A DNA stretch of 64,000 nucleotides, taken from assembly GCA_041661275.1 (NCBI GenBank), contig JBAZUU010000001.1, positions 101,057 through 165,056 of the forward strand. Direction: 5' to 3'. This stretch comes from Parcubacteria group bacterium. GTDB lineage: Bacteria > Patescibacteriota > Minisyncoccia > Moranbacterales > UBA2206. The notes below the pieces were generated by a model. It made no database searches. It was given only the letters and a program-made list of their open reading frames with translations, and had not been told where the DNA came from. The translations under genes and the position numbers were made by a program. Shown here in pieces: positions 5,040 to 20,559 of the stretch. Each line of letters begins with the position of its first letter. Position 1 is the stretch's first letter.

Positions 5040-5243
5040 ATGGAACAAGGAACAATCAAAAGACTGACTGACCGAGGATTTGGCTTCATTGCCAGAGAAG
5101 GTCAGGACAAAGATCTTTTTTTCCACTCAAAAGAACTTCAGGGCGTGACCTTTGAAGAACTGCGAGAAGGTGACAAAGTTCAGTTCGAAGTGGCTGAAGG
5201 CCCTAAAGGACCGAACGCTGTCAACGTATCAAAAGTTGCCTAA
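5040..5243 (+). CDS. cspA: Cold-shock protein (CspA family, S1-like cold-shock domain)
   Basis: RGFGFI and LFFHxSEL RNP-like motifs. 67 aa. Confidence 0.9.
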   Translation: MEQGTIKRLTDRGFGFIAREGQDKDLFFHSKELQGVTFEELREGDKVQFEVAEGPKGPNAVNVSKVA

Positions 5244-5261
5244 ACACTTTTGAAGTATTTA

Positions 5262-5298
5262 ACAAAAACCACCCTGTGAAAGCGGGGTGGTTTTTTGT
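5262..5298 (+). terminator. Rho-independent terminator (CCACCC ... GGGTGG plus T-run)
   Basis: Hairpin 5269-5290 followed by TTTTTT. Confidence 0.8.
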
Positions 5299-5309
5299 TT
5301 TATTATCTT

Positions 5310-5415
5310 AGGACTCGCGCGTTGACCGCTATTCCAACTTTTCAAAAAGCTAAGCTTTATGGACAAGCCCAGGCATTTCAAAAAGCTTAGCTTTGAGGAA
5401 ATGCTAACGATAGTA
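5310..5415. repeat. Copy A of an approximately 105-bp intergenic repeat (AGGACTCGCGCGTTGACCGCTATT...TTTCAAAAAGCTAAGCTTT...TTTCAAAAAGCTTAGCTTTGAGG...)
   Basis: About 85 percent identical to 7251-7358. Each copy contains two sub-repeats TTTCAAAAAGCT(A/T)AGC(T/C)TT and follows a rho-independent terminator. Confidence 0.85.
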
Positions 5416-5455
5416 GCTGCGCAAATCCTGTATTGAAAAAATATTCGGGGATTTT

Positions 5456-5956
5456 CTATTTCACCGGAATATTTTTCTCCATTTCTTTTTGAAATTCTTC
5501 CGGATCAGGCATGCTTTCCCGAAAATCCTGTGATTTTTTCTCCCACTCTTCGCTTTCTTTACTAAATTTATCAGCACTTTCCTCTATCTCATTTAGGATC
5601 GAGTTATTATTTATCCGATTATTTATTTCTTTTTTCGCTTCCCTTATTCCCCACCATCCGAGACCAACTACGGCAACTAATATAAGAATGACGATCAAAA
5701 GACATCCGCCGATGATCCACGGCCAAGGACTGCTGGATTTAGGAGGCACAGGAGTTGCTGGCGGCGCAGCTGGCGCGGGCGGGTAATAAACAGGAGGAGG
5801 GGTCGGAGTTGGTTGAGGTGCTGGCGGCGGCATTACTGGAGCTAGTGGTGGAGCGGGCATCGGTTGCGGCGTCATCGGAGCTGGTGCCATCGGTTGAGGA
5901 ACCACTGGCGGTGGCGCCACCGGAGCTGGCGCGGGAGCTTGGTTTTGTTGTTCCAT
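5456..5956 (-). CDS. Proline-rich single-pass membrane protein (hypothetical)
   Basis: N-terminal PAPAPVAPPPVVP low-complexity region, one TM helix, acidic C-terminal tail. 166 aa. Codon-level repeats. Confidence 0.5.
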   Translation of the reverse strand: MEQQNQAPAPAPVAPPPVVPQPMAPAPMTPQPMPAPPLAPVMPPPAPQPTPTPPPVYYPPAPAAPPATPVPPKSSSPWPWIIGGCLLIVILILVAVVGLGWWGIREAKKEINNRINNNSILNEIEESADKFSKESEEWEKKSQDFRESMPDPEEFQKEMEKNIPVK

Positions 5957-6071
5957 ATTTTTGTTTTTATTATTGCCGTTTACATAGAAAATATAGCATA
6001 AAATTTAATTTTTAAAAATGCCGACTGGTTTTTTATTTGAAAAAATCCGGTTTTTGGCGGATAATGAAGCT

Positions 6072-6419
6072 ATGGAAACAAAACAAAAAATTATCCATTG
6101 GCTGCCGAGAATTTTGAGCTTTGGTTACGTTCTCTTTTTTTCACTCTTCGCGTTTGACGTTTTTAGCGGTCCTTTCAGCTGGACAATGATCCTGGCTTTC
6201 GCTGTCCACCTTCTCCCGTCTTTTCTTCTTCTTATAGCCATCGTTGTTTCCTGGAAATATGATCTTTTTGGTTTTTTTATCTTTTTTGGTTTCGCTGTCG
6301 GATATGTTTTTATGGTCGGCTTTGACCGGCCTTGGAGCTGGTATGCCGCCATCTCCGGCCCCTCGGCCGTTGTCGGGATCCTTTATCTTCTTAGCTGGCG
6401 CCAGAGGAAACATCATTGA
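6072..6419 (+). CDS. Small integral membrane protein (3-4 TM, hypothetical)
   Basis: Start moved to METKQK (ATG 6072). Hydrophobic throughout. 115 aa. Confidence 0.45.
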   Translation: METKQKIIHWLPRILSFGYVLFFSLFAFDVFSGPFSWTMILAFAVHLLPSFLLLIAIVVSWKYDLFGFFIFFGFAVGYVFMVGFDRPWSWYAAISGPSAVVGILYLLSWRQRKHH

Positions 6420-6423
6420 AGAA

Positions 6424-6500
6424 TAGATTATTGTTAACGTGTTGACAATAGCATTAACGTATGTTAACATAGTGACAGAGAAGTTAACTAATATAAAGCC
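6424..6500 (+). promoter_or_regulatory. Promoter/operator with clustered GTTAAC half-sites (TTGTTAACgtGTTGACAatagcaTTAACgtatGTTAACAtagtgacagagaaGTTAACtaat); TTGACA at 6442-6447
   Basis: Five GTTAAC/TTAAC palindromic motifs within 70 bp upstream of the HTH-Doc operon. Confidence 0.4.
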
Positions 6501-6507
6501 CTTGTTT

Positions 6508-6765
6508 GTGAGTAAAAATGGCTTTTTTTCAACAACTGAAGCAGCAAAAATACTCGGAATCAGCCGGATTGCCGTGTTTAACCGTGTAAAAAGAGGCTCT
6601 CTGAAAGCTATCCGGATAGGCAAAAACTGGGCAATTCCCAAGGAAGAGCTGGAAAATAATCTGGGTCGTCCGCTAAGCGAGGAGGAAAAACGAATATTGT
6701 TAGAGGGTGTCCGTAAAGTTATTGCCGAATATGGAGAAACTTTGCGGAGACTAGGCAAAGAATAG
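6508..6765 (+). CDS. HTH_17/excisionase-type DNA-binding protein; putative antitoxin of the downstream Doc toxin
   Basis: STTEAAKILGISRIAVFNRVKRGSLKAIRIGKNWAIPKEEL is a MerR/excisionase-family HTH. Stop is 2 nt before the Doc start. The start codon is uncertain (GTG 6508, TTG 6502 or GTG 6439). Confidence 0.6.
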   Translation: MSKNGFFSTTEAAKILGISRIAVFNRVKRGSLKAIRIGKNWAIPKEELENNLGRPLSEEEKRILLEGVRKVIAEYGETLRRLGKE

Positions 6766-6767
6766 TT

Positions 6768-7190
6768 ATGATCAAAAGACTGACGATCATCGAAATAGAA
6801 TTCATCGCTCACGCGATGGCCAGGGAAACATTGGCGTGGAACGAACCGATCCCCGACTTTTCAACGCGCTATCCGGGAAAACTGGAAAGTTGCCTGGCGA
6901 TGCCGTTTCAAAAATTTTCCAGAAAAAATTTATATGAAGGTCTTATTGGAAAGGCAGCCATTATGTTCTATCTGATGATTAAAAATCATCCCTTTCAAAA
7001 CGGCAACAAGCGTATCGCGGTCACTACGCTTCTTTTGCTTCTCTACAAAAATGGAAAGTGGATCAGCGCTTCCAATGAAACTTTATATCGGTTCGCTGTT
7101 CTCGTCGCCCAAAGTCCGGCTGAACTGAAAAAAGAAATTGTCATTCTCATTGAAAATTTCTTGGAGAAATATGTGAAAGATGCAAAATAG
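6768..7190 (+). CDS. doc: Doc (death-on-curing) family toxin, Fic fold with HPFQNGNKR motif
   Basis: Canonical Doc motif NHPFQNGNKRIAVT. 140 aa. Adjacent to a small DNA-binding partner. Confidence 0.8.
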   Translation: MIKRLTIIEIEFIAHAMARETLAWNEPIPDFSTRYPGKLESCLAMPFQKFSRKNLYEGLIGKAAIMFYLMIKNHPFQNGNKRIAVTTLLLLLYKNGKWISASNETLYRFAVLVAQSPAELKKEIVILIENFLEKYVKDAK

Positions 7191-7207
7191 GGCAGCTGGA
7201 ATTTCAA

Positions 7208-7245
7208 TTAGAGATTAAAAAACCGGCATCGCCGGATTTTTGTGT
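7208..7245 (+). terminator. Rho-independent terminator (CCGGC atcg CCGG plus T-run)
   Basis: Hairpin AAAAACCGGCATCGCCGGATTTTTGTG after the Doc stop. Confidence 0.7.
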
Positions 7246-7250
7246 CTTTA

Positions 7251-7358
7251 AGGACTCGCATGTTTGCCGCTATTTTAGCTTTTCAAAAAAGCTAAGCTTT
7301 AGGGAAAAGCCCCGGCGTTTCAAAAAACTTAGCCTTGAGGAGATGCCAACGGTAACAA
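7251..7358. repeat. Copy B of the approximately 105-bp intergenic repeat (see 5310-5415)
   Basis: Direct repeat in the same orientation as copy A. Together they bracket the 5416-7250 segment carrying the HTH-Doc pair. Confidence 0.85.
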
Positions 7359-7374
7359 ACGCACGAGTTCCATT

Positions 7375-7539
7375 TCATTTCCTCCAATCGCTGATTTCCA
7401 ACTTTCCCCTGCCTTTGTCTTTGATGACTAGCTTCTGCTTTTCCTTCCAGCCATATTTTTCCACCATCTCCTTGGGGATGGTCACGGAATAGCTATACAC
7501 GCTGGATTTTTTGAGTTTGATGATGTTTTTTTCTTTCAT
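7375..7539 (-). CDS. AbrB/MazE/SpoVT-type swapped-hairpin DNA-binding protein (54 aa, below the ORF-track cutoff); orphan antitoxin-like
   Basis: Manual translation MKEKNIIKLKKSSVYSYSVTIPKEMVEKYGWKEKQKLVIKDKGRGKLEISDWRK. The VTIPKE motif fits the AbrB/MazE fold. ATG at 7539, stop at 7375. Confidence 0.5.
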   Translation of the reverse strand: MKEKNIIKLKKSSVYSYSVTIPKEMVEKYGWKEKQKLVIKDKGRGKLEISDWRK

Positions 7540-7733
7540 ATTTTTTATTTTAATTATTTTTTAGAGGCCTCTATAGTTGCTTCTATTTTATCTTACCACC
7601 GCCCGGTTGGGAAATCCAGAAGTGATGAATACTTGAAAAAATTCAAATTTTGACGGATAATACAGCAGCGGGATGGCATTCAACTGGAAATGAATTAACC
7701 CGCCCCTCCTAAATATTATTGTATTAAGTTTAT

Positions 7734-8387
7734 ATGGACGATATTCAGTTGGAAAAATTATTAAAAGATTTAATTTCGCTTCCCCACAATGAAGAAATTT
7801 CCAAAGCATTAAGAAAAGAAGTTAAGATGTACCCCGAAGTTGCCATCCGTGAATTTGTTGCCAACGCGCTTATCCATCAAGATCTTTCGATATCCGGCGC
7901 GGGACCAATGATAGAAATATTTGATAATCGTATAGAAATTACCAATACTGGTGAGCCACTAATTGAGACTGATAGATTTATTGACCACCCGCCTCGCTCT
8001 CGAAATGAAGACATGGCATCTTTTATGCGGCAAGTTGGTGTCTGTGAAGAAGGAGGCACTGGTATCGATCGGGCATTAATTAACATAGCCTTATATCAAT
8101 TACCCGCTCCTAGTTTTGAAAAGTTTGACAACTTCACTAAGATTACCTTGTACGCTCATAAGGATTTAAAAGAAATGACATTGGATGATAAAGTACGCGC
8201 CTGTTTTCAACATTGTGTTTTAAAGCATATTGAAAAATCAAGAATGACAAACGCAACTCTCAGAGAACGACTTGGTATCGGCGAAAAAAATTATCCGGCC
8301 GCCTCCGCAATTATCAAGGCAACAATAAAAAAAGGATTCATTAAAGAATCGGAAAAGCCAAAAGAATATGTTCCAATTTGGGCTTAA
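7734..8387 (+). CDS. HATPase_c_4-type (RecG C-terminal-like) putative transcriptional regulator lacking the AlbA_2/Schlafen N-domain
   Basis: IREFVANALIHQD ... IEITNTGEPL ... RSRNEDMASFMRQVGVCEEGGTGIDR matches the PF13749-like ATPase-like DNA-binding family. 217 aa. Confidence 0.6.
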   Translation: MDDIQLEKLLKDLISLPHNEEISKALRKEVKMYPEVAIREFVANALIHQDLSISGAGPMIEIFDNRIEITNTGEPLIETDRFIDHPPRSRNEDMASFMRQVGVCEEGGTGIDRALINIALYQLPAPSFEKFDNFTKITLYAHKDLKEMTLDDKVRACFQHCVLKHIEKSRMTNATLRERLGIGEKNYPAASAIIKATIKKGFIKESEKPKEYVPIWA

Positions 8388-8492: not shown

Positions 8493-9635
8493 CTAAAAAT
8501 CCTTAAACCCCACCCCCCTTAAATCCTTTTTCACCCTATTCACAAATTTCCCAAACTGCCTGGCTTTGTTTCTTTTTTCCAGCTTGCTCGATTCGTTGTG
8601 CCGGGCTTCTTTTTGGAGAGTGATATAGTTTTGAAACTTTCCCGCGTCCAGCGTGCCGGACTTTGCGGCAGCGAGTACCGCGCAGCCGGGTTCGTGAGTG
8701 TGTGTGCAGTCATCAAACTTGCAATCATTGGAAAGAGTCGCTATTTCATCAAAGATACTATCAACGCTGGAAAGCGTATCGCCAAGACCTACTTCACGGA
8801 CACCGGGATTGTCGATGACAATGCCGCCGGAATCCCCGCCTGCGCCTAGGCTTCGGCGGGCAGGCAGAAAATACATCTCGCGTCTTGTGGTCACATGTTT
8901 TCCTCTGTCGGAATATTCACTCACGTCTCCGGTCTTGATAGTCCCTTCGCCAAGTAAAATATTGATAAGCGATGACTTCCCGACGCCAGACGACCCCAAA
9001 AAACAATATGTCTTTCCTTTGATAATATTATCTTTTAGCGCTGCTAGTCCTTCGCCGGTTTTGGTGCTAGTGGCGAACACGCTCACATCGCCCAGTCTTG
9101 TTTTTATCTCCAAAAGTTTTGAATTCAATTCTTCTTTGGAAATTAGATCAATTTTATTAAGGATGACAGCCGGCTCGATGCCACCGTCTCTTGCTATGGC
9201 AAAATATCTCTCAAATCGGTTGAGATTGTAATCCCGGCCGACCGACTGGACGACATAGGCCGTGTCGATGTTGGCCGCTATCATCTGAATTTCATTTTTT
9301 TCGCCAGACCTGTCACGGTCACCAAACTTTCTTTTCATCACAGTACGCCTGGGCAAAATGGCGCGGATGACCGCTTGTCCCTCACCGCTCTCTTCGATCG
9401 CCACCCAATCACCGACAGCTGGATAGTCCTCTTTCGATCTGGCGTTATGTCGAATTTTTCCGGTAATTTTGGCCAGATACGTTCCATCAGTATTTTTGAC
9501 ACTGTATGCACCTTTCGTTTCCGTTGTCACCCGAGCCACAGCAAAACCATCAAGGCCAAGTTTTGCCCGATTGGATTCGAAGAACGGGCCATACCCCAGA
9601 TCTTCCATCGTCAATTTTTTGCTTTTCTTTTCCAT
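8493..9635 (-). CDS. rsgA: Ribosome small-subunit-dependent GTPase A
   Basis: Circularly permuted GTPase order (NKIDL ... GSSGVGKSSLIN ... DxxG) plus C-terminal zinc motif CKFDDCTHTHEPGC. 380 aa. Confidence 0.9.
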   Translation of the reverse strand: MEKKSKKLTMEDLGYGPFFESNRAKLGLDGFAVARVTTETKGAYSVKNTDGTYLAKITGKIRHNARSKEDYPAVGDWVAIEESGEGQAVIRAILPRRTVMKRKFGDRDRSGEKNEIQMIAANIDTAYVVQSVGRDYNLNRFERYFAIARDGGIEPAVILNKIDLISKEELNSKLLEIKTRLGDVSVFATSTKTGEGLAALKDNIIKGKTYCFLGSSGVGKSSLINILLGEGTIKTGDVSEYSDRGKHVTTRREMYFLPARRSLGAGGDSGGIVIDNPGVREVGLGDTLSSVDSIFDEIATLSNDCKFDDCTHTHEPGCAVLAAAKSGTLDAGKFQNYITLQKEARHNESSKLEKRNKARQFGKFVNRVKKDLRGVGFKDF

Positions 9636-20370: not shown

Positions 20371-20559
20371 ATGGCTAAAAGTGATAGAGGATTCGCTTCG
20401 ATGGATCCTCAAAAGCAAAAACAGATAGCCTCCAAAGGCGGGAGGACTGTCAGTCAGGACAGGCGTCATATGGCGGAAATCGGCCGAAAAGGCGGGAAGT
20501 CGGTCAGTAAAGACAGGATGCATATGGCGGAAATCGGCCGAAAAGGCGGGAAGTCGTAA
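20371..20559 (+). CDS. KGG-repeat general stress protein (YciG/con-10-like)
   Basis: Repeats ASKGGRTVSQDRRHMAEIGRKGGKSVSKDRMHMAEIGRKGGKS, encoded by an exact approximately 60-bp tandem DNA duplication (20455-20574). 62 aa. Confidence 0.7.
   Translation: MAKSDRGFASMDPQKQKQIASKGGRTVSQDRRHMAEIGRKGGKSVSKDRMHMAEIGRKGGKS

Follow-up and report, generated by a model that had tools for sequence, protein, structure and literature searches.

Foldback repeats of the miniature inverted-repeat transposable element (MITE) type have been described in several bacteria, including ERIC and YPAL in enterobacteria and yersiniae, Correia in Neisseria, and RUP in pneumococcus. Such repeats are about 100-170 bp long, non-coding and bounded by terminal inverted repeats, and the whole element folds as a hairpin. 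They are intergenic, often located just past stop codons or between convergent genes, are co-transcribed with flanking genes either way, and are patchily distributed among close relatives. Correia and RUP duplicate a TA dinucleotide or short targets. Here we describe two direct repeats, E1 and E2, in a window of 64,000 nt from a Parcubacteria group bacterium (contig JBAZUU010000001.1, positions 101,057 to 165,056). The two repeats flank an interval that carries a toxin-antitoxin (TA) module consisting of an HTH_17 gene and a doc gene. The reading that we favour, with somewhat better than even confidence, takes E1 and E2 for two old members of a low-copy family of non-coding foldback repeats of the MITE/ERIC/REPIN kind, which by chance flank a patchwork of accessory genes with an ordinary HTH_17-Doc pair as its sole organised module.

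Judged from general knowledge, the element shares with ERIC, YPAL, Correia and RUP its size class, terminal inverted repeats, hairpin, intergenic siting and probably its patchiness, and has no sequence similarity to any of them. The MITE traits found in it are a length of 119-125 nt, the lack of coding sequence and outer arms of 17-18 bp, which are perfect in one copy (L094). It differs from these four families in that no target-site duplication is seen, copies are very few in the DNA covered, each copy holds a pair of self-palindromic 13-mers in its inner part, and the host belongs to the Parcubacteria group of the candidate phyla radiation (CPR). A likeness to repetitive extragenic palindromic (REP) sequences and to REPINs is seen in the palindromic units, the extragenic position at gene 3' ends, the long hairpin formed by a doublet, the association with terminators and the tolerance of strand-asymmetric G.T mismatches. 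However, REPs occur in tens to hundreds of copies and have a cognate gene for a REP-associated tyrosine transposase (RAYT), neither of which was seen in the DNA covered, and the units of the element are 13-mers that, unlike REPs, are too short for folding alone.

Other systems are more distant. Integron attC sites and clusters of attC sites lacking an integrase (CALIN) also consist of imperfect palindromes of ~60-140 nt at the 3' ends of cassettes; TA cargo is common, and the sites within an array are alike. In E1 and E2, by contrast, the core sites are missing and their order is reversed, there is no integrase among the genes scanned from 5456 to 8387, and only two sites surround a multi-gene interval of mixed orientation. 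Arrays of tandem interspaced guide RNAs (TIGR) belong to RNA-guided Tas/Nop systems in CPR and phages, and comprise two alternating 8-12-nt repeats with 9-nt variable spacers in mostly 5-15 units, with a Nop-domain gene adjoining (PMC12045711). They resemble the element in their short repeats, in a period of ~36-38 nt followed by a terminator and in their occurrence in CPR genomes, but the element has two 20-nt units with a sequence common to different organisms, and the six genes scanned from 5456 to 8387 gave no match to a Nop-domain family. Identification of the element as attC, a TIGR array, an IS110 bridge RNA, a retron or a CRISPR mini-array was rejected on anatomy and for want of associated genes. 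A full-text literature search returned no paper on repeats or MITEs in Patescibacteria, with passing co-mentions at most.

Anatomy, placement and family of the foldback repeat

The initial annotation of this DNA reported two repeats of ~105 bp in the same orientation, about 85% identical. This description was borne out by blastn within the window, which aligned 5310-5412 with 7251-7354 in one orientation over 104 nt, with 83.65% identity, one indel and E = 6e-24. The pair is thus as described, but its borders, given as 5310-5415 and 7251-7358, have to be moved: comparison with homologues revealed an outer arm on the 3' side that base-pairs with the 5' end, and the full element of ~120 nt (119-125) extends to 5434 in E1 and 7371 in E2 (Table 1). 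No third copy was found in the window with blastn or an unfiltered covariance-model search, and an outer-arm pattern allowing up to 3 mismatches matched only the 5' arms of E1 and E2 in the 64 kb.

From the outside inwards, the element consists of inverted outer arms of 17-18 bp, then a short middle helix, then an inner inverted repeat of 13 bp (AAAGCTAAGCTTT/AAAGCTTAGCTTT) and a variable centre of 20-21 nt; its end sequence is AGGACTYRCRYGTTTGC. Every inner arm is itself palindromic (AAAGCT-W-AGCTTT) and directly preceded by TTTCAA, which explains why the initial annotation saw paired sub-repeats. These sub-repeats, TTTCAAAAAGCT(A/T)AGCTTT, are indeed present twice in each copy, at 5340-5358 and 5376-5394 in E1 and at 7281-7300 and 7318-7336 in E2, the last of them reading TTTCAAAAAACTTAGCCTT. 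All nine known copies of the element (see below) are intergenic and none holds a conserved open reading frame (ORF). Small ORFs within the element were considered and rejected, as the reading frame is lost across the indel that distinguishes E1 from E2 and no ORF is common to the copies. A promoter within the element was likewise rejected on both strands by promoter prediction and inspection.

Each copy begins 14-15 nt beyond an intrinsic terminator predicted on both strands (T1 and T2, Table 1), so that the earlier claim of repeats directly following terminators holds at both sites. E1 is located between the convergent genes for a cold-shock protein (csp) and a Pro-rich membrane protein, and E2 between the convergent doc and AbrB-like genes. 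On the minus strand, the stop codon of the Pro-rich gene is 22 nt from E1 and that of the AbrB-like gene 4 nt from E2. Because E1 and E2 stand between a stop codon and a terminator on this strand, they are probably transcribed from it as a hairpin of 40-50 bp in the 3' untranslated region (3' UTR), as the layout and the predicted terminators suggest. Such a hairpin could, as a side-effect, stabilise the Pro-rich and AbrB mRNAs or help to terminate them.

A long hairpin was predicted for either strand of the element, with a consensus energy of -36.4 kcal/mol on the plus strand and -27.1 kcal/mol on the minus strand, and all five full-length copies retain it, with 82-89% of cells paired. No Rfam family was matched, either in the whole window at gathering thresholds or in 5200-7600 at permissive thresholds; the best permissive hits reached 29 bits against a cut-off of 56 and rested on the terminator.

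Does the element occur elsewhere? An exact-pattern search of JGI metagenomes returned 65 loci, of which seven were true homologues by nhmmer, covariance model and inspection. Three are full-length (L068, L055 and L094), all from one sample, and four consist of the core only (L043, L044, L096 and L099), all from another. Element copies thus total nine, with two in the window and seven on short metagenome contigs, one on each. The search pattern fixed 21 core bases, and the conservation of the core, including the left arm, is therefore partly imposed. In L094 the terminal inverted repeat is a perfect one of 18 bp, CAGGACTTACGCGTTTGC...GCAAACGCGTAAGTCCTG. The seven copies outside the window are found in unrelated contexts, near a MarR-like gene, a methyltransferase gene, genes upstream of alaS, an FtsX gene and others, and no TA module stands beside any of them. 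A strong hairpin is present on the side corresponding to T1 and T2 in five of the nine copies. The sole taxonomic link for the seven contigs is a YggT-like protein that is 53% identical to that of a Parcubacteria relative. GTDB representative genomes gave 30 single exact-pattern hits in unrelated taxa, none of which resembles the full element and which are chance matches. Among viral contigs (pattern scans) and among phages and plasmids (blastn), nothing more than a solitary unit or a chance hit turned up, and a literature search with the 12-mer returned PCR primers at most.

Two further observations were made in these metagenomes. Eight Ga0208946 contigs (L057, L063, L070, L071, L078, L087, L090 and L097) carry an AT-rich non-coding repeat of at least 300 nt, which holds CTGAAAGCTTAG-AAG-CTAAGCTTTAAAATG, the same 12-mer in another arrangement. 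A sister family in these contigs was considered and rejected, as the repeat is long, AT-rich and without ORFs and has only the 12-mer in common; it is probably the repeat of an unrelated organism. In L099 (~950-1090) and L044 (~450-600), which come from one sample, the core hairpin lies inside a larger shared unit of ~135 nt in which a GC-rich hairpin (CCTGCCTACCGGCAGGCAGG) and TACGAA(A), repeated four times, are also present, which indicates that the core combines with differing flanking modules in different organisms.

The locus was compared with two relatives, L036 and L037, whose adjoining HI0933-like proteins are 84% and 73% identical to that of the window. Both keep the synteny of the HI0933-like gene and csp, and both keep the terminator hairpin of csp almost base for base, with no element after it. 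Neither the element nor the genes between E1 and E2 are present in L036 or L037. There is no copy of the element in ~54 kb of the relatives' DNA, and none downstream of the AbrB ortholog in L037. Since the relatives keep the csp terminator and AbrB without the element, it was probably gained in this lineage, beside terminators that already existed and in two gaps between convergent genes. The comparison with related genomes that the initial annotation had proposed gave no clean empty site at the csp terminator or at AbrB, as the relatives' neighbouring genes also differ. Look-ups of Doc, Csp and AbrB for strain alleles of the locus gave the source contig, besides two variant contigs (Logan ERR15459707 and ERR12035931). 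In these, an identical Csp is followed by an 88-aa gene on the minus strand, a 98-aa HTH_17 gene and the start of a Doc-like gene. As the genes after an identical Csp differ, variation downstream of csp extends to very close relatives.

The HTH_17-Doc module

The initial annotation described a canonical Doc toxin with an upstream helix-turn-helix (HTH) partner and a GTTAAC operator, and profiles, motif and operator sites agree with this. Doc scored 52.4 bits with TIGR01550 (cut-off 38.65) and 41.4 bits with the Pfam Fic family PF02661 (24), and matched a PHROG Doc-like toxin with E = 7.6e-18. The Doc motif H-x-F-x-(D/N)-(A/G)-N-K-R is present; HPFQNGNKR is invariant in six homologues (alignment A6) and aligns with HCFYNANKR of PDB 9vzc, a protein of the death-on-curing family. 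The partner of 85 aa scored 35.3 bits with PF12728 and 34.8 bits with TIGR01764 (cut-off 28.8), and thus both proteins passed the profile check that had been proposed for them. No Phd/YefM match to the partner was found in profile searches. Its C-terminal tail, YGE.L..LG.E, is invariant (alignment A5). Upstream lies a TTGACA-17-TAACAT promoter, with GTTAAC sites overlapping it at 6433-6438, 6463-6468 and 6483-6488.

The module resembles Phd-Doc of phage P1 in having a Doc-family toxin, a small upstream gene 2 nt away and palindromic operators over the promoter. It differs in the partner, which is of the HTH_17/excisionase type and not of the Phd/YefM fold. The N-terminal HTH of the partner would bind the GTTAAC palindromes over its promoter, and Doc is presumably blocked by the invariant helix at the C terminus of the partner. 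When the labile partner has gone, Doc may phosphorylate EF-Tu, as P1 Doc does.

The partners of Fic/Doc toxins listed in a 2009 survey are Phd, AbrB/MazE and YhfG, and truncated MerR-type HTH proteins are listed there only with PIN toxins (PMC2701414). Is the pairing of an HTH protein with Doc then atypical, as the initial annotation had it? It is unlike the textbook Phd-Doc pair, but it recurs. Doc has 5178 homologues at E <= 1e-5, and six more HTH_17-Doc modules were examined, selected for Doc proteins 62-86% identical to that of the window. In all six contexts the module is a bare bicistron of an 85-aa HTH_17 gene and a 138-144-aa doc, each in another neighbourhood and one beside tRNA-Arg. 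One set of four loci encodes a Doc protein identical to one that NCBI names as Candidatus Saccharicenans, which by this name lies outside CPR. The promoter/operator layout is conserved in the CPR loci L105 and L107 (TTGTTAAC..TTGACA..TTAACATATGTTAAC..GTTAAC); in the Saccharicenans-type locus L108 the GTTAAC sites and a TTAACATATGTTAA palindrome are kept and an exact TTGACA is absent. The element was found near none of the six. As the bare bicistron stands in differing contexts without the element, the TA module is an autonomous and widespread unit that is mobile by itself. This also indicates that a Doc subfamily with thousands of homologues has an excisionase-type HTH protein, and not Phd, as its regular partner.

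In L105 (6481-6642; 1830-1991 in L106), a 53-aa AbrB-fold gene directly follows doc on the same strand. Its product resembles the AbrB-like protein of the window, with which it shares a ...LPKE...GW.E.QKL... motif. This arrangement could be due to chance or reflect a recurrent link with this Doc subfamily.

Explanations for the repeat pair

Could E1 and E2 represent a functional structured RNA, either a cis-acting 3'-UTR hairpin that acts as a stabiliser or terminator helper, or a minus-strand small RNA that ends at the terminator? This is a possibility that we consider doubtful. Besides the long hairpin retained in every full-length copy, it can claim the position of both window copies on the minus strand, 4 and 22 nt from a stop codon and before a T-run terminator. 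A co-directional stop codon precedes the element by 0-17 nt in L055, L094 and L096. Relative to their neighbouring genes, five copies have the minus-type orientation and one the plus-type (L044), with three between convergent genes, and the minus type thus prevails in five of six informative contexts. The inner hairpin on the minus strand is followed by UUUUUGAAA, and each of the inner-stem substitutions, two of which are in E2 and the third in L099, results in a G.U pair on this strand. Stability and G.U counts point to the other strand, however: the plus-strand fold is the more stable one in eight of nine cores, and G.U-only pairs number 25 on the plus strand and 11 on the minus strand overall. 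G.U and A.C mismatches are balanced in the window copies (4/3 in E1 and 5/6 in E2). The plus-oriented element of L044 lies inside the interval from gene to terminator, neither strand has a conserved promoter, orthologous genes in relatives do without the element, and Rfam holds no match. Covariation is weak across the five full-length sequences, with 5 double-change pairs against 2.4 +/- 1.2 in shuffled alignments and 25 of 500 shuffles reaching that number; the core of the nine copies has 0 double changes, and shuffles equal the observed values. A minus-strand RNA, first inferred from two G.U-compatible substitutions, was dropped after more copies and the context of L044 became available. With conflicting strand signals, no covariation in the core and only weak covariation in the full-length copies, selection for an RNA structure or for one strand cannot be shown, and the data fit a symmetrically decaying DNA palindrome. 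A different role would be that of twin DNA sites bound by a dimeric protein, for instance to organise the nucleoid, to form a roadblock or to serve in plasmid-like partition. It would make use of the sequence itself, which is conserved beyond mere pairing. The self-palindromic inner arms, each after TTTCAA, also form two direct repeats of ~20 nt, and in all nine copies their spacing is constant (36-38 bp) and the spacer variable. We regard this role as improbable. Elsewhere in the window the motif shows no enrichment, with 9 sites counted and 6.0 +/- 2.6 expected. Both E1 and E2 lie where convergent genes meet and no promoter calls for control, and the copies do not regularly adjoin a gene for a DNA-binding protein. 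In every copy the centre of the left arm is A and that of the right arm T, which agrees with arm-to-arm pairing more than with two palindromes acting independently, and the left arm owes its conservation to the search pattern.

The initial annotation preferred to see E1 and E2 as possible recombination sites that delimit a mobile or defence island. Of all explanations considered, ends of recombination or transposition around a TA/defence cassette, whether att-like, attC-like or those of a MITE-flanked composite transposon, are to us the least probable. The two same-orientation copies do flank a 1.8-kb accessory segment that is absent from relatives, Abi (abortive infection), Fic and TA genes are abundant nearby (AbiEii and a 356-aa Fic protein upstream), and the stretch downstream of csp differs among relatives. 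Yet profile scans of genes matched no integrase, transposase or defence-system hallmark in the E1-E2 interval and no integrase family among the genes scanned from 5456 to 8387, and neither type of enzyme is encoded between the copies or next to them. The arms have the sequence ...GTTTGC ... GCAAAC... and not the attC order RYYYAAC ... GTTRRRY. No target-site duplication was found at the window copies or around the composite, and the five full-length copies show one possible 5-nt duplication only (TATTT, L094). An identity of 84% is low for freshly made att sites, and the interval, whose base composition is not set apart, contains four genes in mixed orientation. The repeat family occurs singly at seven unrelated sites without a TA module, and the HTH_17-Doc module travels as a bare two-gene unit, with the element in none of its six other contexts. 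The initial annotation had named occurrence of the repeat at many unrelated terminator-proximal sites as evidence against a cassette; such occurrence was found, on the modest scale of nine copies in all. The idea that the repeats bracket a mobile cassette is thus not supported. The interval is a patchwork of a Pro-rich gene, a DUF7670 gene and the HTH_17-Doc module, not one unit, and it illustrates that a pair of direct repeats around a TA module need not mean a mobile cassette. The fallback of the initial annotation, paired sRNA or terminator-associated elements, is in its terminator-associated part close to the foldback repeat favoured here. E1 and E2, in the same orientation and 1.9 kb apart, could permit RecA-mediated deletion of the segment between them; no such allele was seen. 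Only a little less improbable than a cassette is that the pair is the remnant of an old local duplication of a unit of element, minus-strand gene and divergent promoter, instead of independent insertions. This would explain why two promoter-like blocks, P1 and P2, 78% identical, follow in the same order and orientation as E1 and E2, and a weak third block is present at two minus-strand start codons (5942-5969 and 7525-7552), which alone is not significant. However, the Pro-rich and AbrB genes inside the two units are unrelated, the spacings are unequal (724 and 379 nt), and AbrB with its upstream region is ancestral, as L037 has both while lacking the element and the promoter block.

The interpretation of E1 and E2 as copies of a foldback repeat rests on their anatomy, their membership of a family found at unrelated sites, their absence in relatives and the independence of the TA module, all of which were observed directly. 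The element presumably spread through a transposase acting in trans or through hairpin-directed insertion, for which there is no candidate enzyme. Several points weigh against this interpretation. Only nine copies are known, two of them in 69 kb of the source contig, far under typical MITE or REP numbers; this 299.6-kb metagenome contig is ENA ERZ27249449 k141_323660, with proteins recorded under a Parcubacteria-group (CPR/Patescibacteria) MAG, and the 69 kb read for copy counts in the source genome cover 23% of it. The copies are old, with 75-85% identity, no target-site duplication is consistent across them, and the DNA covered revealed no transposase or RAYT gene. The inner arms hardly vary from organism to organism, which is partly imposed by the search and possibly reflects a sequence-specific function. 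Two copies just 1.9 kb apart are unexpected in a rare dispersed element, and the collinear P1/P2 pair hints at local duplication and not independent insertion.

A more far-reaching proposal, which we advance tentatively and think unlikely as a whole, is that this is the first recognised member of a class of foldback repeats specific to CPR/Patescibacteria. It would either insert 14-15 nt past terminator hairpins or be a domesticated 3'-UTR hairpin that sets mRNA ends or stability, and the E pairs together with P1/P2 would help to assemble and express accessory genes downstream of csp. Patescibacteria genomes are very small and compact, and a documented family of foldback repeats would provide a handle on the gain and shuffling of their accessory genes. 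This handle would be especially good if the element prefers terminator-flanked convergent gaps and ends up in 3' UTRs. Such a family would also serve as a marker for strain-level variation.

Neighbouring genes and further repeats of the window

Table 1. Features of the locus and of the wider window, with the loci of further HTH_17-Doc bicistrons
Feature	Position	Strand	Remarks
csp, cold-shock protein gene	5040-5243	+	Pfam CSD 79 bits; core gene, left border of variable segment
T1, intrinsic terminator	5264-5295	both	bidirectional, predicted on both strands; ancestral
E1, foldback repeat copy 1	5310-5434		covariance-model score 78.1 bits; 3' outer arm degenerate
E1 inner arms	5346-5358 and 5382-5394		
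Pro-rich single-pass membrane protein, 166 aa	5456-5956	-	weak family matches only
P1, promoter-like block (TTGAAA-17-GATAAT)	6034-6070	+	upstream of DUF7670 gene
DUF7670 small membrane protein	6072-6419	+	Pfam PF24709 98.1 bits, residues 1-114 of 6072-start version
TA promoter/operator	6430-6490	+	TTGACA 6442-6447, TAACAT 6465-6470
HTH_17 (excisionase-type) putative antitoxin/autorepressor, 85 aa	6508-6765	+	GTG start
Doc-family toxin, 140 aa	6768-7190	+	motif HPFQNGNKR; HTH_17 gene ends 2 nt before
T2, intrinsic terminator	7223-7235	both	bidirectional, predicted on both strands
E2, foldback repeat copy 2	7251-7371		covariance-model score 78.8 bits
AbrB/MazE-like protein, 54 aa	7375-7539	-	PF04014 34.2 bits
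P2, promoter-like block paired with P1	7630-7666	+	upstream of truncated HATPase_c_4 gene
HATPase_c_4 + C-terminal region, 217 aa	7734-8387	+	PF13749 66.7 bits, only domain match
RsgA GTPase gene	8493-9635	-	Pfam RsgA_GTPase 145.9 bits; core gene, right border
Other two-copy repeat	21072-21140/62236-62304		
Other two-copy repeat	40079-40201/52025-52152		
Other two-copy repeat	26773-26822/58024-58073		
Other two-copy repeat	20257-20302/30922-30967		
54-nt tandem duplication	20434-20541		
HTH_17-Doc bicistron loci	L105/L106, L107, L108-L111, L114, L115		

The ORF map and profile searches agree with the identities first given to the Pro-rich, small membrane, HTH_17 and AbrB/MazE-like genes. The AbrB-like gene had been called an orphan. 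Its product aligns throughout with a 56-aa protein of L037, with an identity of about three quarters, and the two genes have the upstream motif TTTAGAGGCCTCTATAG in common. The gene directly adjoins RsgA in L037, and a 55-aa MazE-like gene is located near RsgA in another relative. Since its ortholog adjoins RsgA in a relative, the AbrB-like gene is a core gene of the lineage and not an orphan or stranded antitoxin.

The HATPase_c_4 gene had been described as a regulator. HATPase_c_4 is its sole domain match, as stated, but the label of regulator does not fit a product that corresponds to the C-terminal part of a family of ~485 aa. The product matches residues ~275-485 of homologues that are mostly 470-500 aa long, at 45-59% identity, and its best PHROG match spans profile positions 281-472 of 485. 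A stop codon is found three codons upstream of the ATG. As the product covers only the C-terminal ~210 residues of its homologues, the gene is a 5'-truncated form. It lies in a segment of ~0.9 kb that, relative to L037, is inserted between AbrB and RsgA, which suggests either a remnant expressed from the P2 block or a decaying insertion.

P1 and P2 are 37-nt direct repeats of the form TAYTTGAAAAAATYC..TTTTGRCGGATAATRMAGC. Their alignment score is 21, compared with 11.3 +/- 1.5 in shuffles, and TTGAAA-N17-GATAAT occurs in the 64 kb at P1 and P2 only, against 0.09 expected. They may derive from a portable promoter or from an old duplication. In P1, the -10-like hexamer stops 6 nt short of the ATG at 6072, from which the full DUF7670 match is obtained; gene callers took an alternative start at 6018. 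Either the DUF7670 transcript is nearly leaderless, or the start at 6018 is right and P1 lies inside the ORF.

The wider neighbourhood contains TA/Abi-type genes amid housekeeping genes (DEAD helicase, HI0933-like, csp and RsgA). The gene for the second and larger Fic-domain protein, of 356 aa (456-1526), is found 5 kb upstream and is followed by a gene of ~203-212 aa (1541-2179), and the AbiEii gene is located just before the window start (L004, 521-1216).

Besides E1 and E2, the window holds at least four further two-copy repeat families that contain hairpins, of 46-125 nt and 79-92% identity (Table 1). On a crude ORF map these are mostly found in gaps beside gene ends, with some overlapping long ORFs, and some bear a hairpin of the CGTCATCCTGAGCGAAG...CGAAGGATCTAC type. 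The source genome is thus rich in dispersed hairpin repeats.

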